The notes: a model not told the origin generated them from the sequence alone. DNA of 64,000 bases from a bacterium (GCA_015486285.1 WFRX01000140.1:1621-65620), one strand, 5' to 3'; positions 23,584 through 52,459 are shown, counted from the stretch's first letter. A program made the numbers and translations.

Positions 23584-24237
23584 TCAGTCGTCGAAGGACA
23601 GCGTCTTCTTGACGACGGCCGGAACACCGGCGATCAGCGCATGGTCCGGCACGTCTTTCGTAACGACGGATCCCGCGGCGGTCTGCACGTTCATGCCGAC
23701 GCGGACCCCGTCGATGCAGGTCGTGTTGATGCCGAGAAAACAACACGGACCGATTTCGGTATGTCCGGCAAGGTTTACGGCCGGTGCGCAGAATGTATGG
23801 GCCCCGATCGTCACATGATGCGAGACGAAGCACCGGGAAGACAGGAGCACGTTCTCCCCGACACGGGCATGCATGTCGATCGTGCAGTCGACCAGCACGA
23901 TCGATCCCTCCTTGAGAAGGGCGGACTTCTCCACGTACGAGCTTGGGTGTACGAATGTGGCGATCGGAACGCCCCGTTCCTTCAGGGCCGCATAGATCTC
24001 CCTGCGGAATTTCCTCTGTTTGTATCCGACAGCGATCGCCACGGCGTCGAAGGCCCCTTTCCCGAACGCCGCCGGGATGTCTTTCGCCCCGCCGAGGACG
24101 GGCCTGTCATGCTTGAGCGCGCCCGCTGCCTCGAAATCGTCGAACATGCCGACGATGCTCGCGAATCCGGTCTCTTCAAAATAGTAGATCAGGCGATCAC
24201 TCAGCTCGCCCGACCCCACCATGGCAATCTTCTGCAT
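23584..24237 (-). CDS. Hexapeptide-repeat (left-handed beta-helix) sugar N-acetyltransferase, NeuD/PglD family
   Basis: N-terminal Rossmann-like MVGSGELSDRL plus C-terminal hexapeptide repeats, in a sugar-modification context. Confidence 0.7.
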   Translation of the reverse strand: MQKIAMVGSGELSDRLIYYFEETGFASIVGMFDDFEAAGALKHDRPVLGGAKDIPAAFGKGAFDAVAIAVGYKQRKFRREIYAALKERGVPIATFVHPSSYVEKSALLKEGSIVLVDCTIDMHARVGENVLLSSRCFVSHHVTIGAHTFCAPAVNLAGHTEIGPCCFLGINTTCIDGVRVGMNVQTAAGSVVTKDVPDHALIAGVPAVVKKTLSFDD

Positions 24238-24262
24238 ACGTTCCCTGCTTTACGAGGCCGCC

Positions 24263-24296
24263 CCAAAAGTCCCATCTGCGGCTGAATCGGCTTGGA
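24263..24296 (+). repeat. Copy 3 of the short repeat family (CCCCAAAAGTCCCATCTGCGGCTGAATCGGCTTGG), fused to the left arm of the palindromic element
   Basis: 19-nt identity (CAAAAGTCCCATYTGCGGC) with copy 1. Confidence 0.45.
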
Positions 24297-24475
24297 AAGA
24301 TCGCTGTGGTTCCATGCGGTACTCGAGTGATTCCGTGCAGTCCGGGGTGCCGTCGGAGATTTGCGCCGGGCGACTTCGGGGGAGGGAGAGACGGAGCCCA
24401 AGCAAATCGGAGACGGGATCCCGGACTGCACGGAACGGCAAGCTTCCTGTGAAACATAGCGATCTTTCCAAGCCG
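24286..24475. repeat. About 190-bp nested palindromic (long-hairpin) intergenic element between the GT2 and acetyltransferase genes
   Basis: Outer arms ATCGGCTTGGAAAGATCGCT (24286-24305) / TAGCGATCTTTCCAAGCCGCGAT (24453-24475). Inner arms TTCCGTGCAGTCCGGG (24338-24353) / CCCGGACTGCACGGAA (24417-24432). Further partial symmetry around 24380. Small artefactual ORFs on both strands in the track reflect the symmetry. Confidence 0.6.
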
Positions 24476-24480
24476 CGATG

Positions 24481-25410
24481 CTAGACATCTTTTTCCCGGA
24501 TCAGGTACTGCGGCGCCTGGTTCACCTCCTGAATGATGCGCAGAAGATACTCTCCGATGATGCCGAGCGAAAACATGACGGCCCCCGAAAAGAACAGGAG
24601 GAGAAGAACAAGGGTCATCCACCCGGGCACGGTGATGCGCCCCAGGAAGAAGAGCGTCAAGTAATATCCGCCGAGGGCGAAGGCGATGAACATGCTCAGA
24701 AGCCCCATGAAAAACACCCCTTTCAGGGGAAGGGTGCTGTGATACAGCACGCCGTGAAGGAAGTGCCGGGCGAGCTTTCCCGCCGTGTAGGTCGTTCTTC
24801 CGTGGGGGCGCGGGAGATGCTCTACGGTGATGTTTCCGATCTTGTCCGTTATTTGCAGGATCAGCAGGCCCACCGCGGGGTTCGGTGTGCGCATGTGGAG
24901 GAGGTTTTCGATCACGGCCCGCCGAATGATCCGGAAATTGCTCATTTGAAACACCGGATCCTGCTTGAACATCATGGAAACGAGTCGGCGGTACGCAAAG
25001 CTCCCCGCATTTCTCACCCGGGACTGTTTCCTGGTTGCCGGTGTTCCGCAGACCATGTCGAGCCCTGTCCGGCGAATCTCCTCGATCAATCTCGGGATCT
25101 CCTCGGGCGGGTTCTGAAGGTCATCATCGATCGTGACGACATACTCTCCGGAAGCGAAAGAAAAGCCGCACATGAGGGCGTTGTGCTGCCCGAAATTTCT
25201 CGTGAGCCTGACGATTTTCACCCGCTTGTCCTGCTCACGCAGCGATTGCATGACCTCCCAGCTCGAGTCCCCGCCCCCGTCCTCCACGAGGATCAGCTCG
25301 TAATCGCCCCGCACGCCTTCCAGCGCCTTGTCGATGCGTTCATAGAGTTCCCGCAAGGACCGTTCGCTCTTGTAAACCGGTACAACGATGGAATAGAGCG
25401 CTTCGCTCAC
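24481..25410 (-). CDS. GT2-family polyprenyl-phosphate sugar transferase (ArnC/GtrB/DPM1-like) with C-terminal TM helices
   Basis: YSIVVPVYKSE...LVEDGGGD...TIDDDLQNPPEEI GT-A motifs plus two C-terminal TM segments. GTG start overlapping the Kce stop. Confidence 0.8.
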   Translation of the reverse strand: MSEALYSIVVPVYKSERSLRELYERIDKALEGVRGDYELILVEDGGGDSSWEVMQSLREQDKRVKIVRLTRNFGQHNALMCGFSFASGEYVVTIDDDLQNPPEEIPRLIEEIRRTGLDMVCGTPATRKQSRVRNAGSFAYRRLVSMMFKQDPVFQMSNFRIIRRAVIENLLHMRTPNPAVGLLILQITDKIGNITVEHLPRPHGRTTYTAGKLARHFLHGVLYHSTLPLKGVFFMGLLSMFIAFALGGYYLTLFFLGRITVPGWMTLVLLLLFFSGAVMFSLGIIGEYLLRIIQEVNQAPQYLIREKDV

Positions 25411-26246
25411 GATGCCAACCCCAGGCGTTCTCTTGTCGTTCTTATGCCGGCGGGCCGCCTCCCCATGGCTTTCGCGATGTCGAGCACCCGTTCGATGAGA
25501 TCCCGGTTGGAAGCCGGCCGCGTCCGATCTTCATCGTACCATATGTTGTCTTCCAGCCCCACCCGTACACCGCCGCCCGCGACGATGGCCATGGCGTTCA
25601 TTCGCAGCTGCGAATCGCCCACACCCCCTACGGACCAGATCGCGCCTTCCGGCAGATCATTGATCATAAGGCCCAGAGAAAGCATGTTGGCCTGCGCACA
25701 CGCGATGTTCCCCAAAATCAAATTGAAATAATAGGGCGGTTTGAGCCATCCCTTCCGGATCAGGTACTTCGCATAATTGATCATCCCGAGATCGAAAACT
25801 TCCAGCTCCGGTCGGATGCCCTTGTCCATCATCTTCCTGGCCAGGGCCTGAATCATCTCCGGGCTGTTCACGCTCGCCTGCTTGTTGAAATTGAGCGAAC
25901 TGAGCGTCAGGCTTCCGAAATCCGGCTTCAACCCGCCCGCCAGGTCCAGGGCCTCGGAGCGCTGCTCGAACTCGAAGAAATTCCTGCCGCTCGTCGAAAC
26001 GCTGATCACCAGGTCCTTGTGGCTGGAACGAATGCCGCTGATGATCGCGGCGTACACCTCTTTCTTGTAGGTCGGAAGGCCGGTTGCCGGGTCCCGGGCA
26101 TGAAGGTGAACCATGTTCACGCCCATCTCCGCGACCTCGTTCACCTGCTCGACGATTTCTTCGGGCGTAACCGGCACCTTGGATGTCGTCTCCTTGGTCG
26201 GGATCATGCCCGTGGGCGTGAAATTGATGATCAGATCTTTCTTCAT
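25407..26246 (-). CDS. BKACE-family (3-keto-5-aminohexanoate cleavage enzyme-like, DUF849) protein
   Basis: TIM-barrel Kce-like sequence (MKKDLIINFTPTGM..., VHLHARDP, GVRVGLEDN). Start at internal ATG 26246 overlapping the WbqC stop. Confidence 0.6.
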   Translation of the reverse strand: MKKDLIINFTPTGMIPTKETTSKVPVTPEEIVEQVNEVAEMGVNMVHLHARDPATGLPTYKKEVYAAIISGIRSSHKDLVISVSTSGRNFFEFEQRSEALDLAGGLKPDFGSLTLSSLNFNKQASVNSPEMIQALARKMMDKGIRPELEVFDLGMINYAKYLIRKGWLKPPYYFNLILGNIACAQANMLSLGLMINDLPEGAIWSVGGVGDSQLRMNAMAIVAGGGVRVGLEDNIWYDEDRTRPASNRDLIERVLDIAKAMGRRPAGIRTTRERLGLAS

Positions 26247-26986
26247 GCCCGAGCGCCTCCTTCCCGGCCCCTCGAGGGGGATGGAAAACTCAACATGCAC
26301 TCCTTCGCCCCTTCCGGCCCCTTGTTCAGGATCAGATCGAGGATGCTCACCTCATGGATGAAAGGGGGAGAGAAGAGCTGATCATATTCCGGATATCCTC
26401 CGTAGTCCATCCAGTTCACGCGGATCCCCTGCTCCCGGAACAGGCCTTCGTCCAGGTAGGCCTTTGCCGCGGGGCCGGAAAGATACTCCGTAGCTCCGGC
26501 CTGCAGGCAGAGGTGGACCAGGCGCCCGGTCTTCCCCTCCACCGCCGGCCCGTAGTCCATGGACCAGCTCAACCGTGTTCGTATGCCGAGCAGGTCGGCG
26601 ATGGCCCGCAGGAAGAGAGCGTTGATCCTGCTCAGGTGCGTTTCCTCTTCGCATTCCGAGTACAGGCTTTGCAGCAGGGGGCGCAAGGGCTCGAAATGGG
26701 GGGCCCGCGCATAATTCCTGCAAAGGGACTTCCAGTGCCTGACGGGCCACCTCCTGTCGCTCACCACGACGTCCCGGATCTCCTGACCGTACCGGCCTTT
26801 CGTCTTCACGGGGATGGTCAACCAGACGGCGCCCCCCGGCGTCTTGATCCGATTTCGGTTCCGCCATCCGCGCGGAGAGTATTGGACATCATCGTAGAGG
26901 ATAAACTCGTCTACTTTGTTGATGAGGTCGAAATATCCCTTCCATGGGATATAGCATGATTGAACGATCGCTACACATTTTCCCAT
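26243..26986 (-). CDS. WbqC-like family protein (polysaccharide-cluster protein of unknown function)
   Basis: MGKCVAIVQSCYIPWKGYFDLI... resembles WbqC. The long GC-rich N-terminal extension in the track is ignored; the ATG is at 26984-26986. Confidence 0.6.
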   Translation of the reverse strand: MGKCVAIVQSCYIPWKGYFDLINKVDEFILYDDVQYSPRGWRNRNRIKTPGGAVWLTIPVKTKGRYGQEIRDVVVSDRRWPVRHWKSLCRNYARAPHFEPLRPLLQSLYSECEEETHLSRINALFLRAIADLLGIRTRLSWSMDYGPAVEGKTGRLVHLCLQAGATEYLSGPAAKAYLDEGLFREQGIRVNWMDYGGYPEYDQLFSPPFIHEVSILDLILNKGPEGAKECMLSFPSPSRGREGGARA

Positions 26987-26997
26987 CCGTTCGCCTG

Positions 26998-28785
26998 TCA
27001 GTCTTTTCCGTCCCGTTGGAGATGCGGCGGCCCGAGCCGCCTGTCCAGCCAGGCGGAAGCATCCTGAACCCTGGTTCGCTGATTCGGGCATTTGAATCGT
27101 TCCCGCATGCCCGCCAGTATCCTGCGGGCGCTCCGCCAGTCCCGGATCCTTGCAGCGAAGTCGAAAACGAACAGGGCCTGTGTGATATTCCGGACTTTTT
27201 CCAGGCCCCGTCCCCTGCGAGGAACGCCCCGCGGCAGGGTCACATCCTTGCGGGCAAAGACCGCGGCCGCGGGGCCGTAGAAAGCGAGCTTCCAGTCCGG
27301 GGCGTGCAGAAACCAGCCGATCAGGCCCCGGCACTCATAGCGTACACAGCAGACCTGAAAGGGGAAGTCCCGCAAGAAGGCCCGGACCCTGACCCCCGAA
27401 TGAAAGGCCCCGTACCGGTCGAGCCACGCCTTGAACGGAAACTGGCGGGGATCGATCATCACCTTCTCTTCAGGCCACAGCGCCCAGAGCAGGTAGCCCC
27501 CGCTGCCGTAATCGTTTCCCAGCCGGTAGCGGGGGAGGTGGCTCCGGATGAAGTCCGCCGCTTCCACCGGATTCTGGTAGGAGATACCGAAGCCGCACCA
27601 TCTCGAACCGTAGGGTTTGCAGACGGCGTCGAAGCATGCGCGGGCTCCGAAAAAGACGCACGCCAGAAGGATCAAACCGCCCAGGGCGGAGGCCGGGAGG
27701 CGGCCGTCCGGCCGGAATCCCCGAGGCCTGCGAGCCAGGAGATGGACCGCGCTCAGGGAAAAGACCGGCGCCCAGTAATAGGTCGCCCGCAGGAAGCGGG
27801 TGAACAGGAAGGCGAAGGCCAGGTTGGTCAGGAGGATCGCGTAGTCGGGACGCGGATGTTTCGTCCTGTGCGCCATCAGGCTCAGCAGGATCAGACCGGC
27901 CGCGGCCAGGTAGCTCGCGTAATGAAAGTGTGCCGCCCGCGGGTCCAGCGTGGACATATAGGCCTCGATGACCTTGAAGTATCCTTCCTGTGTATGGACG
28001 AGCAGGGAGGAGACGAGATGGGCGGGATATCGCCAGCCATAGGGGGTTACGAATATCGCGAGGCCGCTCAGGACAAGGGCGGAGAAGAACGGGGGCCGCA
28101 CGGCGGCCGGGATGGCCGCTTCGGGCGTGAAAAGCAGGTTCAGCGCCTCCCCGATCCCCATCACGAGGAAAAAGACCGCACCGAAAATGAAGCCGCCGTG
28201 GCTGTTGACCCACAGGAGCATGAGAGCGGGCAAGAGCCAGCAGGTACGCCGGGCCCTGTTTCCGCCCCCTTTGATCCGCAGCCAGGCGAGCACGGTAAGG
28301 GTCATGAATACATAGGAAAAGATCTCCGGCTTGATGTAGGCCGCGTTCTGCGACATGAGCACGCCGAGCAGGCAGATCAACCACGTCAGGGGATGTCCGG
28401 CAACCCCGAGCCGCCGGGCCAGGAGGTAGACGGCCAGCACAAAGATCAAGAGGCATGCATACCGGAAGGCAAACAGGGCGGGAAGGCCTCCCGCCGCGTG
28501 GAGGAGATACAGGAAGATCTCGGAAAGCCATGCGCAATAGACGGCGGCATTCTCGGCGGGCGTCCAGGTGAATGCGGTGTGGTCCGGGATGAGGGTCCGA
28601 TGCTCGATCAGGTAGCGCCCATACGCCATCTGCCACCAGAGATCCCCGTCCCGCACAGGCTCCGCATAGCGTATGCCCAGGGTCAACAGCACCACCAACC
28701 CGAGGGCCCAGGGCCAGACCCGGTGCCACTGTCTCTTGTCTGCCCGCGCCACGCCGTCCGCGGAGGCCGCCGGAATTCGCTTCAT
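26998..28785 (-). CDS. Multi-pass membrane glycosyltransferase, GT-C fold (ArnT/PMT, COG1807-like)
   Basis: 595 aa with about 11-13 TM segments; sits next to ArnC-like and ArnB-like genes. Start ATG 28783-28785 overlaps the stop of the upstream antiporter gene (ATGA). ORF 26998..30195 in the track is a fusion artefact across three genes. Confidence 0.55.
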   Translation of the reverse strand: MKRIPAASADGVARADKRQWHRVWPWALGLVVLLTLGIRYAEPVRDGDLWWQMAYGRYLIEHRTLIPDHTAFTWTPAENAAVYCAWLSEIFLYLLHAAGGLPALFAFRYACLLIFVLAVYLLARRLGVAGHPLTWLICLLGVLMSQNAAYIKPEIFSYVFMTLTVLAWLRIKGGGNRARRTCWLLPALMLLWVNSHGGFIFGAVFFLVMGIGEALNLLFTPEAAIPAAVRPPFFSALVLSGLAIFVTPYGWRYPAHLVSSLLVHTQEGYFKVIEAYMSTLDPRAAHFHYASYLAAAGLILLSLMAHRTKHPRPDYAILLTNLAFAFLFTRFLRATYYWAPVFSLSAVHLLARRPRGFRPDGRLPASALGGLILLACVFFGARACFDAVCKPYGSRWCGFGISYQNPVEAADFIRSHLPRYRLGNDYGSGGYLLWALWPEEKVMIDPRQFPFKAWLDRYGAFHSGVRVRAFLRDFPFQVCCVRYECRGLIGWFLHAPDWKLAFYGPAAAVFARKDVTLPRGVPRRGRGLEKVRNITQALFVFDFAARIRDWRSARRILAGMRERFKCPNQRTRVQDASAWLDRRLGPPHLQRDGKD

Positions 28786-30134
28786 CAACGCCCTCCGCCT
28801 GGAAGCTTCTGTGCCGTCCCCCTTGCCTCCCCGCTCTGCTCGAGAGCGAACTTGAACGCGATGGGGCCGATGATCTGATTGATCACAATGACCGCGAGCA
28901 GAAGGGTGAACAGGATCTCGCCCCCTTCCGGAAACCGCCGGGGAATGAGGCCGGCCAGGCCGATCGAGACGCCCGCCTGGGTAATGAAGCTCATGCCGTA
29001 GAGATTGCGCGTCTTGAAGGGGGCCCGGAGAAGCGCGAGCACGGAATGACACGCGATGAAGACGCCTGCGATCCGAATGCCCGCATAGAGTATCGCCACC
29101 TTCCACATCGCCCTGAGGGCATCCAGATCGAGATCCGTGCCGGCCAGGGCGAAGAAGACGACAAAGATCGGCAGGAAGGAGCGGTTGATGGTTGTCTCGT
29201 AGAAGGCTCCCTTTCCGAAAAGGTTCCGGAGAAAGAAGCCCGCGCTCATGCAGATCAGAAGCGGCTCCAGGTGCAGGGGGAGGCCGGCCATGATCGCGGA
29301 CTGCTCGGACAGGGCCTGCGAGAGCCTCGTGACCAGGAAGGCGACGCACAACAGGAAAAAGATTCCCTCCCTGCGGATCACCGTGACGTAGCCGCTCATG
29401 AACCACGCCAGGAAGAGGCCGAGCAGAAGAGAAAGGAAGAACTCGGCGGGTATCCGGAGCCAGAGGCCGCCGGTGTGGGCGGGCACGCCGGCTTCGGCGG
29501 CGCCCGCCAGGGCGAGAAACAGGGAAAAGAGCATGATGACCAGGATGTCCATGACCACCGTCACGCACAGTACGGACTCGGAGAAGTCCCCTGCCGCCCT
29601 GCACTCCTTGATGACCGCCAGGGTCGACGACGGAGAGCGTGCGATCGCCAGCGTGCCGAGCAGCGCCGCCAGGACGATCTTTTGCGCCGCCGGCAGGGCC
29701 GGCAGAGACCCGACGCGGGGAAGGGCGAAATAGAGAAAGGCGAAGATCGCACAGAAGACCGTTAACGGCACGACGACGATCAGGCCGGACAGGAGCCTCC
29801 ACTGCCGTTTCAGATTCTGTGTGCGGAGTTCGAGGCCCGCCGAAAGGGCGATAAAGGCCAGGGCGAGTTCGTCGATGAAACGGAGGGACGCCACCGACTC
29901 GGGAGAGAAGTATCCCAGGACATCGGGCCCGAGGAGGATGCCGGCGAAAAGGTATCCGGTAAGCCTCGGCAATCGGATCCTCGCCGTCCACTCGCCGAAG
30001 AGGTACGCGGCAAGCAGCAGAAAGCCGAAGTTCAAGGTGAGCTGTACTTCCGTGAGCGAGAAGGCGTGCGGAAAGGCCTTCAAGAGAAGTCCCTGCAGCA
30101 GCACCAGAACGGACAATACGAACAGATGGGTCAT
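28785..30134 (-). CDS. Cation:proton antiporter (CPA/Na+-H+ exchanger family), copy 2
   Basis: Polytopic membrane protein with a CPA-like fold and a GxxLGPxxLG-like N-terminus (LFAGILLGPDVLG). ATG at 30132-30134. Confidence 0.7.
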   Translation of the reverse strand: MTHLFVLSVLVLLQGLLLKAFPHAFSLTEVQLTLNFGFLLLAAYLFGEWTARIRLPRLTGYLFAGILLGPDVLGYFSPESVASLRFIDELALAFIALSAGLELRTQNLKRQWRLLSGLIVVVPLTVFCAIFAFLYFALPRVGSLPALPAAQKIVLAALLGTLAIARSPSSTLAVIKECRAAGDFSESVLCVTVVMDILVIMLFSLFLALAGAAEAGVPAHTGGLWLRIPAEFFLSLLLGLFLAWFMSGYVTVIRREGIFFLLCVAFLVTRLSQALSEQSAIMAGLPLHLEPLLICMSAGFFLRNLFGKGAFYETTINRSFLPIFVVFFALAGTDLDLDALRAMWKVAILYAGIRIAGVFIACHSVLALLRAPFKTRNLYGMSFITQAGVSIGLAGLIPRRFPEGGEILFTLLLAVIVINQIIGPIAFKFALEQSGEARGTAQKLPGGGR

Positions 30135-31339
30135 GTTTCTTTCGTGACATAGGCCAGCCCGAAGGGGCTGAGCACTTCGTTGAAAAGGATGGCAAGGAGC
30201 AGCACGGAAAAGGTCATGTTCAACAGGAGCGGAGGCGAAGGCCCTGCAATCCACAGATGAAAGTGAACGGCCAGTGCCGCCCCGATGCCCGCCTGGGAGG
30301 TGAGGCCCCAGCCGAGCGCATGAGCGCGCGGGTACGCCGGGTCGCGGAAGACCCGTCCGAGGAACATCGCCCCGGCGGCGCCCTGCGAAAGGGCGCGTAT
30401 CGCGACGTAGGCCAGGGCAAGCAGGACGGCAAGAGGGGCGCCGATCCTGAGATAGGCGCCCGCGATCATCAGGAAGATCAGATACAGGGGCCGCTCGATG
30501 CGCATCAGCAGATGGAAGGTCTCATCGCTTTTCAGGCTGAAATTGGCCAGAACCGCCCCGGCGATGAGGTGGATGAGAAGCGGTGAGACGCCGAGCAGGT
30601 AGGCCGCGCCGCCTCCGAACAGGACCAGCCCGATGACGATCAGGACCTTGTCCGCCTCCCCGAGGCGAGCCCGAAAGAGCATCAGCAGCAGGAGCCCCAT
30701 GAGGGTCCCGAGCAGGAGGCTGAAGGCCAGTTTTTCGAGAGGCGGGAGCGAAAGGCCGAATCCCCCCCCGGCGGGCTGGTGGAACCCGATGAGAACGCCG
30801 AAAAGAACGATGGCGATTACGTCGTTGATGCTGGCGACGAACTGCAGCACGATGCCCAGGGGACGCTTCTGTTTCGATGCCTGCTGCATCCAGAGCGCCA
30901 TCGACGTTTGGCCGGTACAGAGGGCCGTCACGGCGAGCACGGAAACGGCGAGGCCGAGATGCGGATCGGCCGGAAACCAGACACGCAGCAGGGCGTGGAG
31001 CCCTGCCGACACGAACAGGAGGAGGAAGCATCCGTACAGGAGGATCCAGAGATAGCTCGCTCGTCCGAACATCCGGAGGGCCTTCCCCTCCAGCTGAATG
31101 CCTGCGAGCAGCCCGATCCACCCGAGTCCGACGATCAGGAAAGGGCGCGCCCGCTCGAGGGTGGCGGGGTCCAGAACGCCGAGAAAGGAGTCGCCCAGCA
31201 GATAGCCCACCAGGAGGAACTCCGTTCCGGTCAGGAAGAAAAACCTCCCGGCCCGGGAAGGGAGGAGCTTCACAAAGCTCTTCCGATGGCCCGCGAGGGC
31301 GAGGATGGCGAGGAACAGGATGCCTGCTATCGTCTTCAA
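30131..31339 (-). CDS. Cation:proton antiporter (CPA family), copy 1
   Basis: 402-aa polytopic membrane protein resembling Na+/H+ exchangers. TTG start at 31337-31339 with a GAGGTGG SD. Confidence 0.65.
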   Translation of the reverse strand: MKTIAGILFLAILALAGHRKSFVKLLPSRAGRFFFLTGTEFLLVGYLLGDSFLGVLDPATLERARPFLIVGLGWIGLLAGIQLEGKALRMFGRASYLWILLYGCFLLLFVSAGLHALLRVWFPADPHLGLAVSVLAVTALCTGQTSMALWMQQASKQKRPLGIVLQFVASINDVIAIVLFGVLIGFHQPAGGGFGLSLPPLEKLAFSLLLGTLMGLLLLMLFRARLGEADKVLIVIGLVLFGGGAAYLLGVSPLLIHLIAGAVLANFSLKSDETFHLLMRIERPLYLIFLMIAGAYLRIGAPLAVLLALAYVAIRALSQGAAGAMFLGRVFRDPAYPRAHALGWGLTSQAGIGAALAVHFHLWIAGPSPPLLLNMTFSVLLLAILFNEVLSPFGLAYVTKET

Positions 31340-31385
31340 ACCGCCACCTCTCGAGGCACACGAATGGACTCGCCGGGAGGGGTTC

Positions 31386-31733
31386 TCAATCCCCCAACGT
31401 CTCCGGTCCCGGACCGATGAGATGTTCCACAGGCAACGTGAAAAGAATCCCTCGTTTCCCGTTCTCGATCCCCCCCACGGTCAGATCGATGGTGGCCAGG
31501 GCCTGTTGGAGCAACTCTTGGTCCCTGATTACGGAGAGGATGATCTTGTTGTAAGGCTTCGATCCCTTCAAGATGGAACGAAACCCGGCGAAGATCGGTA
31601 TTTCCTGGCTCAGGAACTGCAACATGCCGACGCTATCCAGGATGGATGCCCCGGGAACGCCGATCTCCAGGAGCGCCTCGAGCACTTCCGTGAGATACCG
31701 GTCTTCATTCAGGATGTATACGAGGGCCCACAT
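31386..31733 (-). CDS. PII-like (GlnB-fold, DUF190/COG1993-type) small regulatory protein
   Basis: 115 aa with a ferredoxin-like PII fold signature (ILNEDRYLTEVLEALLEIGVPGASILDSVG...); found with transporters. Confidence 0.5.
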   Translation of the reverse strand: MWALVYILNEDRYLTEVLEALLEIGVPGASILDSVGMLQFLSQEIPIFAGFRSILKGSKPYNKIILSVIRDQELLQQALATIDLTVGGIENGKRGILFTLPVEHLIGPGPETLGD

Positions 31734-31738
31734 GCCGC

Positions 31739-32206
31739 CTACGACTCCCTCTTGCCTTCTCTTTCACGCAGGAGCCGGTAGACCTGTTCCTTCGTGGATG
31801 CCTTCCAGAGGGCGTCGACGAAACGCTCATCCCGCAGGATGCGCCCGAGGGTGGCCAGGGCGCCGAGGGAAAGCCCGGGCGTGTCCGGATCGCCGAACAG
31901 ACCGATGAGCACCACGACCGGCTTGCCGTCCACGGAGTCGAAGGGGATCGGTTGCTTGAGGGTGGCGACGTAGACGTGCAGGCCCTTGATCCCCGGGACG
32001 AGGGTGTGGGGAACCCCGACGGCGTTTCCGATGCCGGTACTCATCGTCTCCTCCCGCTCGAAAAGCTTGTCCCGAAGGGTCTCCTGCGGGATGCCGATAC
32101 CGCTTTGGGCGACCGCCAGGGCAAGCCACTCCAGGGCCGCCTCCTTCGAGTCGAGGGGACAGCGGATGTAGATGTGTTCCGGATTCAGATACCGGACGAG
32201 CGCCAA
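31739..32206 (-). CDS. PTS EIIA(Ntr)-type (fructose/mannitol-family EIIA, PtsN-like) regulatory protein
   Basis: EIIA-2 fold with a conserved His region (GIGNAVGVPH). TTG start with a GGGAGGA SD. Confidence 0.65.
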   Translation of the reverse strand: MALVRYLNPEHIYIRCPLDSKEAALEWLALAVAQSGIGIPQETLRDKLFEREETMSTGIGNAVGVPHTLVPGIKGLHVYVATLKQPIPFDSVDGKPVVVLIGLFGDPDTPGLSLGALATLGRILRDERFVDALWKASTKEQVYRLLREREGKRES

Positions 32207-32218
32207 GCCGGTCCTCCC

Positions 32219-32728
32219 TCAATCCTCGACGAGAATGAACTGCTCGATATCCCGAACCGAGCCAATGCGTTTTTCCCTCCAGACGGGTTCGAATTTGAGT
32301 CCGATCCTGATCTTGGACTCGTCGTCGATCGGGAAATAATGCTGAAACACGGTGTCCGCCCCTTCGAACTGGAAGAAACCGTATCCGAAAGGAACAGGCC
32401 TCAGGTCCCCGGTCTCGGGATCGATGTAAGGGAACCGGATGATGGTGTAGGTTTCCAGGGTGGCGCGCGGGCCTACCTCGACCTCTTCCTCCATCTTGGT
32501 GAAGCACGGCGCGCAAACCTCGCGGGGCGGAACGTAGACCTTGCCGCATTTCGGGCAGCGGATCCCGACAAACCGCTTGTTCTTCTGCATCTCCTCCAGG
32601 AATCGGCTCCCGTAACGACCGACACTGTACAGGAACGGCTGTACCGCCTCCTTTGCCGAGTGAATGGTCAGGAGATCTTCTTTTTGAAGCTCTTGTTCCT
32701 TTGAGCTTTTCTTTTCCGTCGGGCTCAT
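32219..32728 (-). CDS. DUF35 Zn-ribbon/OB-fold protein (thiolase-associated scaffold)
   Basis: CPKCGKVYVPPREVCAPC zinc ribbon followed by an OB fold. Confidence 0.75.
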   Translation of the reverse strand: MSPTEKKSSKEQELQKEDLLTIHSAKEAVQPFLYSVGRYGSRFLEEMQKNKRFVGIRCPKCGKVYVPPREVCAPCFTKMEEEVEVGPRATLETYTIIRFPYIDPETGDLRPVPFGYGFFQFEGADTVFQHYFPIDDESKIRIGLKFEPVWREKRIGSVRDIEQFILVED

Positions 32729-32742
32729 GGTCCACCCCTCCT

Positions 32743-33906
32743 CTATTCAGGCTTCTTCTTTCCGTAAGCCAGCGTATCCGTCCACAGGCAGCCTCCAAAC
32801 CCGGTCGCGACCCCCAGGTTCACGTCCGGCACCTGCCTGTCCCCGGCCTTCCCCTGGATCTGCAGGGCGATCTCCGCGGACCGGATCAGGGCGGTAGCGC
32901 CGATGCAGTTCGTGGAGATCACACCCCCTGACGGGTTGATCGGAAGCGCCCCTCCCAGATCGGTCACGCCGTCCCAGACCAGCCGGGGGCCTTCCCCCTT
33001 CTTGGCGAGCCCCATGTCCTCGATCCAGATCAGGCCCGCCCAGGAAAAGGGCTGGTACAGCTCGATCACGTCGATTTCCTTGAGCGGCTCCTTGATGCCC
33101 ACCTTTCTGTAAAGCTCCTGAGAGGCCCGTGCCATGGAGAACAGGGCGCCTCCGGAAAAGTCGGCATCACTTACATAGCTGTACATGTGGCGGCTTGCCA
33201 CGCCGAGCACCCAGGCCGGCTGAGGGCAGAGCTTTTCGGCGATTCCCTCGGCGGCATAGACAACGGCGCAGGCGCCGTCCGTTCTCGGACACATGTCCAG
33301 CAGGCAGACCGGGTCCGCCAGCATGGGGGAAGCGAGCACCTCTTCGATGGTGACCTCCTTGCGCAGGTGTGCGTGCGGATTCAGGCAGGCGTGGCGCCGG
33401 TCCCTCACCGAAACGCGGGCGGCGTCCTTGGGCGTGGCCCCGTACATGTCCATATAGGACTGTGCCGTAACGGCCAGGCCGGCGATGGCCCCCGCGAAAA
33501 AGGGCCGGTCCCAGATCGGGTCGAAGGCGGTGTTGATGGCGCCCGTGGTATCGGACTCGGAGTTCTTCTCCCAACCGATGACGAGCACCTTGTCAAAGGC
33601 GCCCGAGGCGACCATGTGGTATCCCGCGATCGCCAGGGTGCTTCCGGTGGTTCCGCCCGTTGTAAGCTTCATGGTGGGCTTCATGAACCCGCCGGACCCG
33701 TCCACGCTCCAGCAGTCCACATAGTTGATCCCTTCGAAGTGGTCCATGTTTCCGATGACCACGGCATCGATGTCGTCGATCGTGAGTTCCCCGTCCTCCA
33801 GACAGCGGGTCACCGCCTCGTTGATGATCTCCTGACCGTTCACGTCCCGCCGAATCGAACGGTGGTGGGTTTGACCAGTTGCTACGATTGCCGCTCTTCT
33901 TGCCAT
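32743..33906 (-). CDS. Thiolase-like protein (SCP-x/DUF35-associated thiolase), copy 2
   Basis: MARRAAIVATGQT..., NPSGG..., and a thiolase C-terminal domain. ATG at 33904-33906. Confidence 0.75.
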   Translation of the reverse strand: MARRAAIVATGQTHHRSIRRDVNGQEIINEAVTRCLEDGELTIDDIDAVVIGNMDHFEGINYVDCWSVDGSGGFMKPTMKLTTGGTTGSTLAIAGYHMVASGAFDKVLVIGWEKNSESDTTGAINTAFDPIWDRPFFAGAIAGLAVTAQSYMDMYGATPKDAARVSVRDRRHACLNPHAHLRKEVTIEEVLASPMLADPVCLLDMCPRTDGACAVVYAAEGIAEKLCPQPAWVLGVASRHMYSYVSDADFSGGALFSMARASQELYRKVGIKEPLKEIDVIELYQPFSWAGLIWIEDMGLAKKGEGPRLVWDGVTDLGGALPINPSGGVISTNCIGATALIRSAEIALQIQGKAGDRQVPDVNLGVATGFGGCLWTDTLAYGKKKPE

Positions 33907-33917
33907 ATCGTCACCCC

Positions 33918-35063
33918 CTATTCTTTCCCGAGGATCCAGACGCAGTGCGACTGGCCGGCGACCCCGTTGACGCCGTGCGCCAGGGCCGTCCGCACGTCCT
34001 TGTCCACCTGCATGTCTCCCGCCTCCCCACGTATCTGGCGGACCGCCTCCGCGATCCGGATGAGTCCCGCAGCGATCACCGGATGAGATGCCAGGAGCCC
34101 GCCGGAAGGGTTGACCGGGATATCGCCCGTTTTCCCGGTGGCCCCGGATTCGGCAAGCTTTCCGCCTCCTCCCTGCTCGCACAGCCCGAGGCCCTCGGTC
34201 CACATGAGCTCCTGATACGAAAACGCGTCGTAGACCTCGGCCACATCGATCTCCTTGCGGGGGTCCGAGATGCCCGCCGCGGCATAGGCCTTTTTCGCCG
34301 CTTTTTCCAGGGCGGAGTATTCGGCCAGATCGCGGTCGCCCAGGAGATAGTTGTCCATGCAGAAGGAAACGCCCTTGATCCATGCCGGCTTCCCGCCGAT
34401 CTTCCTGGCTCTGTCTTCGTTGGCAATGACGACCGCCACGGCTCCGTCCGAAACGGGAGAGCAGTCGTAGAGCTTCAGGGGATCGCAGATCATCCGGGAG
34501 CCCATCACATCCTCGACCGACAGGTCCAGATGCAGGTGCGCGTTCGGGTTGCCCAAAGCGTTTCGATGGTTCTTCGAGCTTACGACCGCGCATTGTTCCT
34601 CGGAGATGTTGTGTCGGTCCATGTACCTCCGGGCTTGCAGCGCACAGGCGGAAACCATGTCGAGGCCGAGGCTGCGCACATAGATCGGGTCGAAGGCGGC
34701 ATTCGTGATGTAGGCGGAGATGCTCTCCGAGCCCTTTGAGTAGGCAGTGACCAGGGTCGTACCGTAGTGTCCGGACAGGCAGCGGCACATCCCGTAAAAC
34801 GCCCCGAACGCTCCGTCTCCCTCGACACAGGAGATGTTCCGGTCCCAGCAGCCGCTCACATCTCCTGTGGCCATGGAGGCGATGGTGCGGCCGTCCCAGA
34901 AATCGTTCGAGGTCGTGATGACGTTGTCGATGTCGTCGATCGTGATGCCGGCATCCTCCAGGGCGGCGACGACGGCGGGATACACCAGCTCAGGGTAATT
35001 GAACTCCTTGAACCGGCCTGCTGCCTTGGTCTGCCCGATGCCGACGATAGCGGCTCTTTCCAT
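33918..35063 (-). CDS. Thiolase-like protein (SCP-x type), copy 1
   Basis: MERAAIVGIGQTK..., VNPSGGLLASHPVIAAGL. ATG at 35061-35063. Confidence 0.75.
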   Translation of the reverse strand: MERAAIVGIGQTKAAGRFKEFNYPELVYPAVVAALEDAGITIDDIDNVITTSNDFWDGRTIASMATGDVSGCWDRNISCVEGDGAFGAFYGMCRCLSGHYGTTLVTAYSKGSESISAYITNAAFDPIYVRSLGLDMVSACALQARRYMDRHNISEEQCAVVSSKNHRNALGNPNAHLHLDLSVEDVMGSRMICDPLKLYDCSPVSDGAVAVVIANEDRARKIGGKPAWIKGVSFCMDNYLLGDRDLAEYSALEKAAKKAYAAAGISDPRKEIDVAEVYDAFSYQELMWTEGLGLCEQGGGGKLAESGATGKTGDIPVNPSGGLLASHPVIAAGLIRIAEAVRQIRGEAGDMQVDKDVRTALAHGVNGVAGQSHCVWILGKE

Positions 35064-35128
35064 TTGGCACCTCACTGTTCGTTCGTTGGTCGATGGCGTG
35101 AAGCGGTTCCGGCGATTCCCCGGGGGAC

Positions 35129-35587
35129 TCAAACCGGCTTGAAGTGCTCGACATCCAGAATCTTGCCCGTTCGCTCTTCGGCGAAGACGGCCTTCACCCG
35201 CATGCCCGCGCGGACCGCGCCGGGCTCGATCTCGCCCAGGAGGTGAACCAGTCCCGTGTCCGCGCCGTCGAGCCTGATCACGGCATACACAAAGGGCGGT
35301 TTCAGCGGCATGATGCCCGTATCCCGCCTCGCGACCGTGAAGGTTTCTATGACTCCCTCGTCGGAGACGTCCACCCAGTCTCCGGTCTCCACGAAGCAGT
35401 ACGGGCAGACCTTCCGGGGAGGCATGAGCACCTTGGCGCACTTGGGACATTTCTTGCCCAGGAATTTCTTCTCGTTTTTCAAGGTGAGCAGGAAACGACT
35501 GGCGGTCTCGCCCGCCTGCCAGGCATAGGGCACCTTGATCTGGCTCTCGTAGACCCGTGGTTCCACACTTTCCCAGACGTTCGACAT
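35129..35587 (-). CDS. DUF35 Zn-ribbon/OB-fold protein
   Basis: CPKCAKVLMPPRKVCPYC zinc ribbon followed by an OB fold. Confidence 0.75.
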   Translation of the reverse strand: MSNVWESVEPRVYESQIKVPYAWQAGETASRFLLTLKNEKKFLGKKCPKCAKVLMPPRKVCPYCFVETGDWVDVSDEGVIETFTVARRDTGIMPLKPPFVYAVIRLDGADTGLVHLLGEIEPGAVRAGMRVKAVFAEERTGKILDVEHFKPV

Positions 35588-35798
35588 CTCTACCCTCCGC
35601 TCGGTTGGTTTTGTATTGCAGGGATATTTCTATTTGAAAGCACTGTAACAAATGGAATAGGTTATCGAGGAACGAGGGAGTCGGCACACGGATGCTTAGG
35701 GTTAGTGTTACTTACCCAAGCTACACCCTTTTCCGGGTTTTTTCAAGAAGAACAAACGGAACAGTGAAGGGCGAAACCCCTGCTCGCAGGCCGTCGCG

Positions 35799-36572
35799 TC
35801 ACGGAGCGTTGGTGTTCCCGCTGAAATCGAATCGAAGGGCGATCTCGACGAATACGAAGGGCTCCGTTCCGGTGAAGAACGAGTTGTCCGACCCCACCGA
35901 CTCTCCGTTGACCTTGAGGTTCATGTCCTCGTAATACCCGAAAAAGTTGTAATGGAAGCCGGTGCTGAAATCCAGGGACACATCGGAAGCGATGTCGTAG
36001 CGAATTCCGCCCTCGATCCCGCCCCCCACGGACATGATGATTCCCCAGGGGTCCATGTCGACCGAGAGGGCCTCCTGTTGGAACGATTCGGATTTCTGGT
36101 CGACGTAGTCGACGTTGAGGCGTACGGAAGGCCCCACCCAGACCCGCATCCTGTCGGTTCGGACGATGCCGAACCCATAGGCATATTTGGCGGCGAAGCC
36201 GTATCCGGTCGCGTCGTACAGGTTGGAAGCCATGTCATCGAACCCGACACCGATTCCGCCCAGGTCCGGGGCGCCGCTCATGCCGTCAAAATGGGTGACC
36301 GCAATGTCCACCCCGAAGTTGAACCGCCAGCCGAAGCGGTCTTCCGGAGTCGATGCGCTGTCGTATAGATACCCGAAGGTGAAGTGGTCGTGCATGAGGT
36401 CGATATCCAGGCCCTTGAACTCGGGCGCGATGTCTTTCACGGCATCGGGCACCCCGATCGAAGGCCATCCCCGCCCCCACCCGTAGAATCCGTAGCCCTC
36501 GCCGGAGGCCCCGGCCGGGAGCAGCAGGAGCGCTGCGATCACCCCCCAAACCCAGCGTGTTCGTCTTTTCAT
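35799..36572 (-). CDS. Outer-membrane beta-barrel protein (porin-like, signal peptide)
   Basis: Signal peptide plus alternating aromatic/Gly beta-strand pattern, ending in F/Y-rich strands. Confidence 0.55.
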   Translation of the reverse strand: MKRRTRWVWGVIAALLLLPAGASGEGYGFYGWGRGWPSIGVPDAVKDIAPEFKGLDIDLMHDHFTFGYLYDSASTPEDRFGWRFNFGVDIAVTHFDGMSGAPDLGGIGVGFDDMASNLYDATGYGFAAKYAYGFGIVRTDRMRVWVGPSVRLNVDYVDQKSESFQQEALSVDMDPWGIIMSVGGGIEGGIRYDIASDVSLDFSTGFHYNFFGYYEDMNLKVNGESVGSDNSFFTGTEPFVFVEIALRFDFSGNTNAP

Positions 36573-36651
36573 CTCGGGTTTCCTCGCATGGTGACGCTCG
36601 CATTATTCATGCCCTCTGACGGCCTGTCAATCCCGCATGGCCGGGCTCCTT

Positions 36652-38082
36652 TCAGCCCTGTTCGCCGATGGTGTGCAGCTTCAACAGGTTGGCGATGCCT
36701 CCGATCCCCAGCGGGATCCCGGCCACGACAGCGACCTGTCCCCCTTTCTTCACCAGCCGTTCCCGAAGGAGCTGTTCCTCCATGGCTTGTATCATGGCCT
36801 CCGTGTGCTTCTTGAGCGGCAGGATCCTTGCGATGACCCCCCAGTACAGGCAGAGCCGCCTTTGCACCGCGGGATCGTGCGTGAAGGCGATGATGGGCAC
36901 CGAAGGCCTGTGCTTGGAGACCAGGCCGGCGGTAAAGCCGGACTGGGTGAAGGCGCAGATCGCCGTGAGCCCGAGGCTGTCCGCGGCGGTACACGCCGCG
37001 AGGCTGATCGCATCCGGCATCCCGGTGGCCGGCTTGTACCGGGAAGGGGCCGTGTGGACGCCCGACGGGAAGGCCTTCTCGGTCTCCCGGGCGATCCGGT
37101 CCATCATCCGGACGGCACCGAGCGGATACCGGCCCACGGAGGTCTCCTCCGAGAGCATGATCGCATCGGTTCCGTCGAGGATGGCGTTGGCCACGTCCGA
37201 GGTCTCGGCCCGGGTGGGCCGTGCGTGCTCGGTCATGGACTCGAGCATCTGCGTGGCCGTGATGACCCATTTGTTTCGTTCGTTCGCCATCCGGATGATC
37301 CGTTTCTGGGCCATGGGTACCTTCTCCGGCGAAAGCTCGACGCCCAGATCCCCACGGGCGACCATGACGCCGTCGGAGGCGTCCAGGATCGCCTCGAGAT
37401 CTTCAAGGGCCTGCGGCTTTTCGATCTTCGAGATGACCGGTATGTCCGTGCCCCGGGCCTTCAGCCTCTTCTTCAATGCGCGGACATCCTTCCCGCTCCG
37501 GACGAAGGAGAGGGCCATGTAGTCGACCCCCATCTCGATTCCGAATTCGAGGTCTTCCCGGTCCTTCCTGGTCAGGCTCGGCAGGGCGGTTTTCACGCCG
37601 GGAAGGTTGACCCCCTTGTGCTCGCCCAGGGTGCCTCCCGTGATGACCCGGCAGAGCAGGTCCGACCCCTTCCTGGATAGCACCTCGAGTTCCATTTCGC
37701 CGTCCGCGAGCAGGATCCGTTGGCCCCGGGTCAATTCTTCCGCGATCCGCCGGTAGCTCACCGGGATGATCCCCTGCTTTCCGAGGACCTTGCCGGGGGT
37801 TACGATCCACTCCTCCCGGGCCCCCAGAACCACGGATCCTCCCTCGAAGCGTCCCGTCCGGATCTTCGGGCCCTGCAGGTCCTGGAGGACGGCCACGGGC
37901 CTCGCGAGCCTTTCCGACAGGGAGCGGATCGCGAGGAGAACCTTCTTGTGCTCTTCGTGCGTTCCGTGTGAGAAGTTCAGTCGCGCCACGTTCATCCCGG
38001 CGAGGATGAGCCTTTTGAGCATGTCCCGGGAAGCGCTGGCCGGGCCGATGGTACAGACGATCTTGGTCTTCCGTGTTTTCAT
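36652..38082 (-). CDS. pyk: Pyruvate kinase
   Basis: MKTRKTKIVCTIGPAS...NVARLNFSHG...; full-length match. Confidence 0.95.
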   Translation of the reverse strand: MKTRKTKIVCTIGPASASRDMLKRLILAGMNVARLNFSHGTHEEHKKVLLAIRSLSERLARPVAVLQDLQGPKIRTGRFEGGSVVLGAREEWIVTPGKVLGKQGIIPVSYRRIAEELTRGQRILLADGEMELEVLSRKGSDLLCRVITGGTLGEHKGVNLPGVKTALPSLTRKDREDLEFGIEMGVDYMALSFVRSGKDVRALKKRLKARGTDIPVISKIEKPQALEDLEAILDASDGVMVARGDLGVELSPEKVPMAQKRIIRMANERNKWVITATQMLESMTEHARPTRAETSDVANAILDGTDAIMLSEETSVGRYPLGAVRMMDRIARETEKAFPSGVHTAPSRYKPATGMPDAISLAACTAADSLGLTAICAFTQSGFTAGLVSKHRPSVPIIAFTHDPAVQRRLCLYWGVIARILPLKKHTEAMIQAMEEQLLRERLVKKGGQVAVVAGIPLGIGGIANLLKLHTIGEQG

Positions 38083-38094
38083 GAGAACCTCCTA

Positions 38095-40743: not shown

Positions 40744-41600
40744 CCCGGCACCCCCTGCACGTAATGTTCGGTCAATGCCTCTTTCAGGTATTCGAAGGCG
40801 GCATCCACATCGTCGAAGAACCGGAAGATGCCCAGATCGTCCTCGCTGATGGTGCCTGCCTCGACGAGGGCCTCGAAGTTGATGACCCGGCGCCAGTATT
40901 CGGTCCCATAGATGATGATGGGCATGAACTTCTTCGTTTTTTTCGTCTGCACGAGGGTGAGCAGCTCGAACAGCTCGTCCAGGGTTCCGAAGCCGCCGGG
41001 GAAGGCGACCAGGGCCTTGGCCAGGTAGAAGAGCCAGAACTTCCGGATAAAGAAATAGTGAAACTCGAACGACAGGTCCCGGCTCTGGTAGTGGTTCGGC
41101 ACTTGTTCCATCGGGAGGCTGATGTTCAGCCCGATCGAGGTGCCCCCGGCCTTCCTGGCCCCCCGGTTCGCGGCCTCCATGATGCCGCCGCCTCCTCCCG
41201 AGCAGATCAGGAAGCGCTTCTTCTTGTCTCGAAGACCCAGCGACCAGCGGGTGAGCTTTTCCGCCAGCTTCACGGCGTCCTCGTAATAGTGCGACATCTT
41301 GAGATCCCTTCTCGCCCGTTCGCATTGCCGGAGGAGGGTTCGGGGAGGCCTTTCCTTCTGTGCGGCCCGCTTCTCCAGTTCTCGCAGGTTCTTTCGCGCC
41401 TCCGCGCGCGGCAGGGTGCGGGCGGATCCGAAAAACACGATCGTGTTGCGGACGTGATTCTTTTCGAAACGGGAGGCCGGTTCCAGGAACTCGGACAGTA
41501 CGCGCACGATCCGTCCCTCGGGCGAGGTCAGGAAGTCGAGATTCTTGTAGGCCTTCTGCGGCCAACCCACAGATCTTTGTGACGAGCGCTTCTTTGCCAT
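40740..41600 (-). CDS. LOG-family (TIGR00730, Rossmann-fold nucleotide-binding, cytokinin-riboside-5'-monophosphate phosphoribohydrolase-like) protein
   Basis: PGGFGTLDELFE and GGGGIMEAANRGA motifs. Stop overlaps the acylase start (ATGA). Confidence 0.7.
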   Translation of the reverse strand: MAKKRSSQRSVGWPQKAYKNLDFLTSPEGRIVRVLSEFLEPASRFEKNHVRNTIVFFGSARTLPRAEARKNLRELEKRAAQKERPPRTLLRQCERARRDLKMSHYYEDAVKLAEKLTRWSLGLRDKKKRFLICSGGGGGIMEAANRGARKAGGTSIGLNISLPMEQVPNHYQSRDLSFEFHYFFIRKFWLFYLAKALVAFPGGFGTLDELFELLTLVQTKKTKKFMPIIIYGTEYWRRVINFEALVEAGTISEDDLGIFRFFDDVDAAFEYLKEALTEHYVQGVPG

Positions 41601-52241: not shown

Positions 52242-52319
52242 TGGCGTCCCCAACCGGATTCGAACCGGTGTTGCCGCCGTGAAAGGGCGGTGTCCTTGGC
52301 CAGGCTAGACGATGGGGAC
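52242..52319 (-). tRNA. tRNA-Glu (anticodon UUC)
   Basis: Minus-strand sequence GTCCCCATCGTCTAGCCTGGCC...CCGCC-CTTTCAC-GGCGG...GGTTCGAATCCGGTTGGGGACGCCA; 7-bp acceptor stem, loop CUUUCAC. Confidence 0.85.
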
Positions 52320-52383
52320 GTCTGGTGACTGCGCTATACGAAAAAGATGGAGTGCTCGACCCCTGTTTTCCCTGAGGTCCGGC

Positions 52384-52459
52384 TGGTGGGCCGTGCTGGA
52401 CTCGAACCAGCGGCTCTCTGCTTAAAAGGCAGATACTCTACCGACTGAGTTAACGGCCC
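52384..52459 (-). tRNA. tRNA-Lys (anticodon UUU)
   Basis: GGGCCGTTAACTCAGTCGGTAGAG...TCTGC-CTTTTAA-GCAGA...GGTTCGAGTCCAGCACGGCCCACCA. Confidence 0.85.

Follow-up and report, generated by a model that had tools for sequence, protein, structure and literature searches.

A conserved EIIA/PII-like gene pair beside cation/proton exchangers and its possible role as a two-protein sensor controlling transport

Why should two small soluble proteins, one of the EIIA type of the phosphotransferase system (PTS) and one with the fold of the PII signalling proteins, be encoded immediately before two membrane transporters? The question is raised by a 64,000-nucleotide (nt) stretch of bacterial DNA (GCA_015486285.1 WFRX01000140.1:1621-65620; the whole stretch is referred to here as the window), in which four genes on the minus strand encode an EIIA protein, a PII-like protein and two putative cation:proton antiporters (CPA-1 and CPA-2). 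The reading that we favour, and that we consider probable with some room for doubt, is that the four genes form one unit, in which a heterodimeric exchanger would be controlled after translation by an EIIA/PII-like sensor acting in trans. The genes, and two features within them, are as follows.

31739..32206 (-), EIIA gene: 155 residues, TTG start, a stand-alone PTS_EIIA_2 domain protein
32006..32008 (-), codon for His67 of EIIA (GVPH motif), the predicted phosphorylation site
31386..31733 (-), PII-like gene: 115 residues, ATG start
31551..31628 (-), T-loop region of the PII-like protein, approximately residues 36-61, motif GM..[FI]L..[ED][IV]P[IL]FA.F[RK]
30131..31339 (-), CPA-1 gene: 402 residues, TTG start, a divergent protomer of the NapA-like type that lacks a soluble domain
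28785..30134 (-), CPA-2 gene: 449 residues, ATG start, a second NapA-like protomer

The open reading frame (ORF) listing and direct reading of the sequence place these genes consecutively at 28785-32206, all on the minus strand, in agreement with an earlier note on this DNA that had described an EIIA, a PII-fold protein and two antiporters here. A Shine-Dalgarno-like sequence, GAGGGAGG, lies 5′ of the EIIA TTG start, the EIIA stop is separated from the PII-like ATG by 5 nt, and the CPA-1 stop and CPA-2 start share 4 nt as ATGA, so that the two antiporter genes do overlap as had been noted. The accompanying claim that the regulators are translationally coupled to the antiporters is plausible within each pair (through the 5-nt gap and the 4-nt overlap, respectively) but does not carry across the 46-nt gap, with no overlap, that separates the PII-like stop from the CPA-1 start. 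The longest ORF for CPA-2 begins at 30254; however, homologues favour the ATG at 30134, which is the likely start because the homologues are 441-463 residues long and their N-terminal Met is nearly invariant.

The conserved core of the locus is the EIIA/PII-like pair. Scanning one genome per GTDB species with a profile of the PII-like family identified a relative in at least 285 species, and the best 80 loci were examined; further loci, including those of Calditrichia, came from contig look-ups. The family as a whole comprises about 600 protein clusters at 50% identity. The best 80 are mostly from Spirochaetota, with others from Thermodesulfobacteriota, Candidatus Sumerlaeota, Candidatus Aerophobetes and Candidatus Vecturithrix, and the carriers include Breznakiella homolactica RmG30 (a cultured strain whose genome is complete), Alkalispirochaeta alkalica DSM 8900 (the genome of a type strain) and a metagenome-assembled genome of a cultured species, Gracilinema caldarium. 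Although the loci were retrieved through the PII-like gene alone, 82 of 92 have an EIIA gene (E≤1e-5) on the same strand and no more than 700 nt away. Two more (L015 and L036) have weaker EIIA matches (E≤1e-3), five others are contig ends, and EIIA is truly missing only in L058, L078 and L079, such that the pair is adjacent in approximately 84 of the 87 loci that could be tested. EIIA comes before PII-like in 15 loci (Thermodesulfobacteriota, Calditrichia and a few others) and after it in 63 (Spirochaetota), with estimated gaps mostly between -4 and +12 nt. Moreover, the two are fused in five representative clusters (P0149, P0152, P0185, P0224 and P0227; 274-289 residues), all with an N-terminal PTS_EIIA_2 and a C-terminal PII-like domain, and one of these (P0152) is seen on five contigs. 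Adjacency in both orders together with fusion provides strong comparative evidence that EIIA and the PII-like protein act together.

There are departures from this pattern. In L078 and L079 (bacterium UASB270 / Candidatus Vecturithrix) the PII-like gene lies directly before an Mrp operon, an EIIA gene being absent both from the interval and from the vicinity, and in some lineages such as these the EIIA partner appears from the gene content to be dispensable, or encoded elsewhere. Two further PII-like fusions, P0197 (405 residues) and P0122 (422 residues), have other partners: one joins the PII-like domain to PilZ (a cyclic di-GMP receptor domain), and the other joins a PrmC-type methyltransferase to it, which may be a gene-calling artefact.

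The genes adjoining the pair are predominantly ion transporters. The complete four-gene unit, whose conservation the earlier note had singled out for checking, recurs in L001, L013, L014, L049, L054 and L098-L103, and without EIIA in L058. In loci of the Thermodesulfobacteriota type, the CPA-1 and CPA-2 genes, in that order, are co-directional with the pair (L001, L013, L014 and L058) or convergent with it (L049 and L054). In about 60 Spirochaetota loci the pair is followed directly by Mrp genes (MnhE, MrpF, MnhG, MnhB, MnhC), including complete operons (MnhE-F-G-MbhD-MnhB-MnhC-MnhD); one example is Gracilinema caldarium, where the string is PII, EIIA, MnhE, MrpF, MnhG, MbhD, MbhE/MnhB, NuoK-like and Proton_antipo_M. 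In Calditrichia the pair is followed by an 84-residue ORF and a Voltage_CLC+CBS protein. The fusions show the same association, with a gene for a 400-residue Na_H_Exchanger protein 11 nt downstream of P0152 (L094), and P0149 flanked by two Na_H_Exchanger genes (L096). The reciprocal test gives the same answer: three CPA-2 homologues (P0300, P0344 and P0320; 39-42% identity), picked solely for their long contigs and without reference to PII, all have an EIIA-PII pair next door (3/3). In these loci CPA-1 (403-407 residues) precedes CPA-2, and the pair is convergent, with its 3′ end overlapping that of CPA-2. The link between the pair and the CPA genes therefore survives a convergent rearrangement in which co-transcription is impossible. 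Neighbourhood conservation shows the arrangement to be far beyond chance, and since the other flanking genes differ between loci, the conserved unit ends at these four genes.

The EIIA protein matches Pfam PF00359 (PTS_EIIA_2) over residues 6-148 of its 155 (E=5e-27; 95 bits, cutoff 27). His67 in the GVPH motif aligns with His73 of E. coli PtsN (using a manually entered PtsN reference sequence) and is invariant in 79 of 79 EIIA proteins encoded beside a PII-like gene; the phosphorylatable His, another of the features proposed for checking, is thus present. For Arg51 the conservation is 92%. A second His typical of the family is retained in 94% of sequences, whereas the window protein has Ser113; this position is Ser or Lys in the nearest CPA-linked relatives, and other CPA-linked EIIAs retain His. 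The earlier note described the protein as PtsN-type and spoke of a possible nitrogen-PTS module; both labels are more specific than the data allow, because the protein scores below the PtsN equivalog cutoffs (58.4 bits against 138.7 for TIGR01419, and 55 against 221 for NF008145). It is likewise far below every NCBIfam equivalog cutoff, FruA included, and by these scores 'PtsN-type' describes a resemblance and not membership. The rpoN-hpf-ptsN-rapZ-npr context is absent at the window, where the neighbours of EIIA are DUF35 and PII-like genes, and from the related loci, among the gene families identified in them.

The PII-like protein is below threshold for Pfam P-II (PF00543; E=0.012; 16.4 bits, cutoff 25), and there had been concern that the ORF could be a mis-call. 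It is, however, a member of a real conserved family with a PII fold. There are 79 homologue clusters at E≤1e-3, and a 28-member family profile, run against 1.84 billion cluster representatives, matches 1253 of them at E≤1e-3 and 593 at E≤1e-10; the more distant homologues (42-52% identity) carry precomputed PF00543 matches, and two NCBI records name homologues 'P-II family nitrogen regulator'. An AlphaFold2 (AF2) model with a predicted local distance difference test score (pLDDT) of 82 has the beta-alpha-beta-beta-alpha-beta order of PII (strands at residues 2-8, 30-33, 63-69 and 95-101, helices at 11-23 and 72-85, and loop and helices at 34-55), and its top Foldseek matches in the PDB are all GlnB, GlnK, GlnZ or SbtB (probability 1.00, target-normalised TM up to 0.81). 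Alignment with E. coli GlnB by hhalign (GlnB sequence entered manually) gives a probability of 84% and E=7e-6, and the equivalent of GlnB K58 (N62-K63) and the B-loop glycines are kept. The C-terminus (...GPGPETLGD) has no Cys, such that the CGPxGC redox loop of SbtB is absent, as is the sbtA context. Taken as a whole, the sequence comparisons place the protein in a PII-like family of its own and not among the GlnB/GlnK orthologues.

A T-loop, which had also been suggested as something to look for, is present at approximately residues 36-61 and is the best-conserved segment of the protein, with D33, G36, M37, P46, F48, A49 and G50 invariant in alignment A1. It is also the most conserved stretch between the CPA-linked and Mrp-linked clades, and is modelled as two short helices with moderate confidence (pLDDT 65-77).

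Both transporter proteins match Pfam PF00999 (Na_H_Exchanger; cutoff 26.2 bits), CPA-1 with 32.9 bits (E=4e-8) and CPA-2 with 63.6 bits (E=2e-17). Single-sequence phmmer searches of the PDB sequences returned no match for either, and family profiles match only Thermus thermophilus NapA (E=4e-8 for CPA-2, and E=5e-5 for CPA-1 with 5bz2). The residues aligned with NapA D156-D157 in transmembrane segment 5 (TM5) are N172-D173 in CPA-1 and M195-D196 in CPA-2. D196 of CPA-2 is invariant in 28 sequences, whereas the position of the TM5 Asp in CPA-1 varies between clades and can lie one residue earlier: the window clade has N-D or H-D, other clades have D-G, D-D or D-A, and L058 (L058:3833-5101), which lacks the Asp, has N-P. 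In some lineages, therefore, the CPA-1 protomer may be degenerate or may not itself transport. Each protein has an invariant Arg (R315 in CPA-1; R354 in CPA-2, for which 28 sequences were compared) about one turn from the position of NapA K305. CPA-1 and CPA-2 are ancient paralogues, 23% identical and colinear over about 400 residues (hhalign probability 99.6%). Their pairing is constant; by phmmer score every locus has one clear gene of each type, and CPA-1 always comes before CPA-2, usually with overlapping stop and start codons. The tandem genes suggest a heteromeric CPA exchanger, and the transporter is probably a heterodimer of divergent NapA-like cation/proton exchangers. There is no heteromeric CPA among the solved-structure matches, of which NapA, a single-gene protein, is the only one. 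CPA-2 homologues form about 1000 clusters, and the JGI labels them 'KefB'; however, CPA-2 scores only 44.8 bits with TIGR00932 (Kef-type CPA2; cutoff 238), CPA-1 does not match it, and neither qualifies as KefB or KefC. No KTN/RCK or other soluble domain was found in CPA-1 or CPA-2, both of which are membrane-only, and no KTN/RCK domain was found in the partner proteins.

This lack of soluble domains suggests that any regulation is supplied in trans, and it provides the starting point for a mechanism. CPA-1 and CPA-2, having no built-in cytoplasmic regulatory domain, would be served by a sensor of two proteins: EIIA phosphorylated on His67, and the PII-fold protein with its long, conserved T-loop. 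The two most likely bind each other, and would combine two signals, the phosphorylation state of the PTS, reporting PEP (phosphoenolpyruvate)/pyruvate or carbon/nitrogen status, and a small molecule sensed by the PII-like trimer. The sensor complex would then bind the exchanger from its cytoplasmic side and turn proton-coupled cation exchange on or off, plausibly so that the proton motive force is not run down futilely at times of low energy. Dual-input EIIA/PII control of cation/proton exchange is what the earlier note had proposed, and the computational tests that it named support it; the mechanism itself we infer, including the regulation of transport by the pair, the protein-protein contacts, the phosphodonor, the ligand, the sign of the regulation and the transported cation. 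A broader version, which we offer more tentatively, is that the EIIA/PII-like pair could be an unrecognised and widespread signalling complex that joins the PTS phosphorelay to a PII-type sensor and gates CPA, Mrp and CLC exchangers, and that CPA-1/CPA-2 could be an obligate heterodimer.

Several observations weigh against this mechanism. First, the T-loop is conserved whichever of CPA, Mrp, CLC or kinase genes comes next, and its likeness across transporters argues for contact with EIIA or with a common ligand, and not with the variable transporter. Second, the symmetries differ: PII proteins form trimers but CPA exchangers form dimers, and a symmetric plug of the kind seen in AmtB or SbtA would not fit. 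Third, in an AF2 model of the P0152 fusion both domains fold well (predicted TM-score 0.61) with no confident packing between them, and the T-loop pLDDT (68-76) does not rise over that of the stand-alone model, a result that speaks neither for nor against contact between the T-loop and EIIA; besides P0152 the input alignment comprised the window EIIA, 27 rows of PII alone and five further EIIA+PII rows, of which four were fusions and one was the concatenated window pair. Fourth, among the canonical ATP/ADP/2-oxoglutarate residues of GlnB (R38, Q39, K58, G87-D88-G89-K90, R101 and R103), K90 aligns with Ile or Leu, R38 and Q39 align with non-conserved residues and the C-terminal Arg pair is missing, and ligand binding by the PII-like protein is uncertain because these GlnB residues (K90, R38, Q39) are not kept. 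Fifth, manually entered HPr queries from B. subtilis and E. coli matched no HPr or NPr in the window or in any of some 100 related loci, the only regions to which this negative applies; no search was aimed at enzyme I (EI), and phosphorylation of His67 is therefore a prediction. According to one report (PMC2405797), HprK and HPr/NPr lineages are present in Delta-proteobacteria and spirochaetes. Sixth, a promoter and terminator scan of 24000-38500 gave counts within about 1.4 standard deviations of shuffled controls, with nothing that delimits the four genes; the sole strong promoter-like site is at 36630-36602. Finally, in L031, L061, L072 and L084 the pair has unrelated downstream genes and no transporter nearby, and in one lineage (L008-L010) it is followed by a Ser/Thr kinase gene with a PEGA domain instead of a transporter.

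These last loci, together with the uniform T-loop, are what would be expected if the pair were a general cytoplasmic signalling module (acting on a kinase, a second messenger or gene expression) that is co-transcribed with transporters through a shared stimulus and does not gate them directly. The PII-like-PilZ fusion adds to this, as do the HAMP class III cyclase genes that precede the pair in L004 and L026-L028, the class III cyclase beside the CPA genes in L054 and the stand-alone 171-residue cyclic nucleotide (cNMP)-binding protein encoded before EIIA in the convergent CPA loci L098-L100 and L103. However, in about 70 of some 90 loci the pair is directly beside proton-coupled ion transporters of three unrelated families, the adjacency is kept in the convergent orientation where there can be no co-transcription, fusion proteins are wedged between exchanger genes, and neither EIIA nor the PII-like protein has a DNA-binding or enzymatic output domain. 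We regard this alternative as rather unlikely. The cyclase, cNMP-binding and PilZ associations may also hint, weakly, at the ligand or input signal.

Two further features of these loci are noted here. In L008-L010 there is a second EIIA gene, divergently transcribed, just upstream of the pair, and in the spirochaete loci L004 and L026-L028 the gene with HAMP and class III cyclase domains is followed by a Cytochrome_P460-like gene, both upstream of PII-like.

It is a good deal less probable that the transporters require EIIA and the PII-like protein constitutively, as structural or assembly subunits for folding or stability, and not for regulation by a signal. The tight operon coupling and the EIIA-PII fusions are compatible with such a role, and CPA-1, being highly divergent, might depend on a partner. 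However, the same two soluble proteins are found beside machines as unrelated as a CPA dimer, a seven-subunit Mrp complex and a CLC protein; the invariant phospho-acceptor His and the PII signalling fold both point to signalling; and in other settings Mrp and CPA systems are known to function with no subunits of this kind. There is scarcely any chance that the window adjacency is incidental, with EIIA and PII-like belonging to the thiolase/DUF35 genes or being ordinary PtsN and GlnB paralogues: a DUF35 gene does end 12 nt before EIIA with no promoter-like site between, but no other locus examined has thiolase or DUF35 genes at its flanks, the association with transporters is seen in several phyla, EIIA scores below the PtsN equivalog cutoffs, and the PII-like protein is below the Pfam P-II cutoff and without the GlnB signature residues.

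Control of the exchanger by the EIIA/PII-like pair, the reading that we favour, has partial precedents. In SbtB and GlnK the T-loop inserts into a cytoplasmic cleft of the transporter (PMC8352866), and as with SbtB-SbtA (a cyanobacterial Na+/HCO3- symporter) and GlnK-AmtB, a small PII-fold protein with a long T-loop is encoded here beside a transporter. The presumed target differs, being a CPA pair (or Mrp or CLC in relatives) and not SbtA or AmtB; an EIIA partner is obligatory here and in some cases fused to the PII-like protein; the trimer would meet a dimeric target, with a mismatch of symmetry; and, unlike SbtB, the protein has no C-terminal CGPxGC R-loop and lacks the canonical nucleotide and 2-oxoglutarate residues.

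In E. coli, EIIA(Ntr)/PtsN regulates K+ transport through TrkA and KdpD. The window EIIA resembles it as a stand-alone PTS_EIIA_2 protein with a conserved phospho-His, a link to monovalent-cation homeostasis and no sugar permease. Unlike EIIA(Ntr), it is not a PtsN equivalog, it is without the usual operon partners (rpoN, hpf, rapZ and npr), it is encoded with its presumed target and a PII-like partner, and Ser replaces the second conserved His in its clade. EIIA(Ntr) binds TrkA and KdpD through soluble domains, which CPA-1 and CPA-2 do not have.

Among exchangers, the best solved-structure match is T. thermophilus NapA (a CPA2 Na+/H+ antiporter; PDB 4BWZ and 5BZ2), colinear over about 340 residues and with the TM5 carboxylate aligned to D157. 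The match is very distant and found with profiles only, and the proteins here differ in having TM5 residues N-D (CPA-1) and M-D (CPA-2) where NapA has D-D, an invariant Arg that lies roughly a helical turn away from the K305 position, and two tandem-encoded protomers instead of a homodimer. The Kef/Kht CPA2 systems (KefC-KefF, KhtU-KhtT and the c-di-AMP-binding CpaA) similarly have a CPA exchanger and a cytoplasmic ligand-sensing module in the same operon; here, however, there is no KTN/RCK domain in the CPA proteins or a partner, and the candidate regulators are EIIA and a PII-fold protein. A further parallel is LacS, a non-PTS secondary transporter modulated by the PTS phosphorylation state of its EIIA domain (reviewed in PMC10710835). 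LacS has an EIIA(Glc)-class domain fused to the transporter, whereas the EIIA here is of the Fru/Mtl/Ntr class, is free or fused to PII-like, and its transporter moves ions. The module would work like the PII-like/transporter and EIIA/transporter pairs, and is a member of none of the families named. The new feature is the obligate coupling of the PII and PTS-EIIA signalling families.

We found no published description of an EIIA and PII-like pair, with or without antiporters, in the full-text articles searched, among which subscription journals are largely absent, such that an earlier description is possible; the earlier note had likewise not recognised the system as described. PII proteins and the regulatory PTS are among the most widespread metabolic signalling systems in bacteria and have been studied as separate circuits. 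A conserved EIIA/PII-fold operon pair and fusion would be a direct physical junction of the two, and its attachment to Na+(K+)/H+ exchangers, Mrp and CLC would tie ion and pH homeostasis, and the spending of proton motive force, to metabolic state. To our knowledge, the regulators of Mrp antiporters and of RCK-less CPA exchangers are largely unknown, and CPA-1/CPA-2, if truly an obligate heterodimer, would be the first such CPA antiporter that we know of. The presence of the module in cultured spirochaetes (Gracilinema caldarium, Breznakiella homolactica RmG30 and Alkalispirochaeta alkalica DSM 8900) makes the hypothesis directly testable.

A different association is found in Calditrichia, where in every locus (L002, L005-L007 and L011-L012) a glutamine-dependent NAD synthetase gene (CN_hydrolase and NAD_synthase domains, about 580 residues) adjoins the EIIA/PII-like genes divergently, upstream of EIIA and on the other strand. 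In one report, nadE is described as often linked to PII genes, and NadE-Gln as regulated by PII (PMC7196632). By analogy, NAD synthetase may be a second target for the PII-like family in this group.

In the window the four genes are embedded in a longer string of genes on the same strand, and two sets of neighbours were considered as further members and rejected. The gene downstream (26998-28785, -) encodes a 595-residue membrane protein, and its ATG shares 1 nt with the CPA-2 stop (TGATG). The protein has six segments by crude hydropathy and no Pfam match, and recurs only in the closest relative, L013, where the copy is 69% identical and lies about 1.4 kb away. Upstream, the stop of a DUF35 gene is only 12 nt from the EIIA start on the same strand; however, the thiolase and DUF35 genes are absent from the other loci examined. 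This region (32219-35587, -) contains two tandem pairs of a DUF35/ChsH2-like gene (zinc ribbon and OB fold) and a thiolase-like gene, co-directional with EIIA. Thiolase-DUF35 complexes are typically encoded in this way, and the arrangement seems to have no connection with the module.

Some other features of the window are also noted. An Rfam scan of the whole window identified no RNA element in or beside the four-gene module; elsewhere it contains a bacterial large signal recognition particle (SRP) RNA (176 bits) and four tRNA genes (features at 63190-63457, +; 52245-52459, -; 58304-58390, +; and 63067-63158, +), which confirm that the DNA is from a bacterial chromosome and have no bearing on the finding. 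The AT skew of the plus strand at 28001-32000 is +0.28 and +0.21, compared with |0.12| or less elsewhere in the window, and probably reflects the T-rich codons of hydrophobic membrane proteins on the minus strand. Lastly, the gene at 38095-41565 (-) encodes a 1156-residue protein of the penicillin-amidase family with about 300 residues before the Pfam domain (residues 318-1137), and there is either an internal true start or an unusual N-terminal extension.

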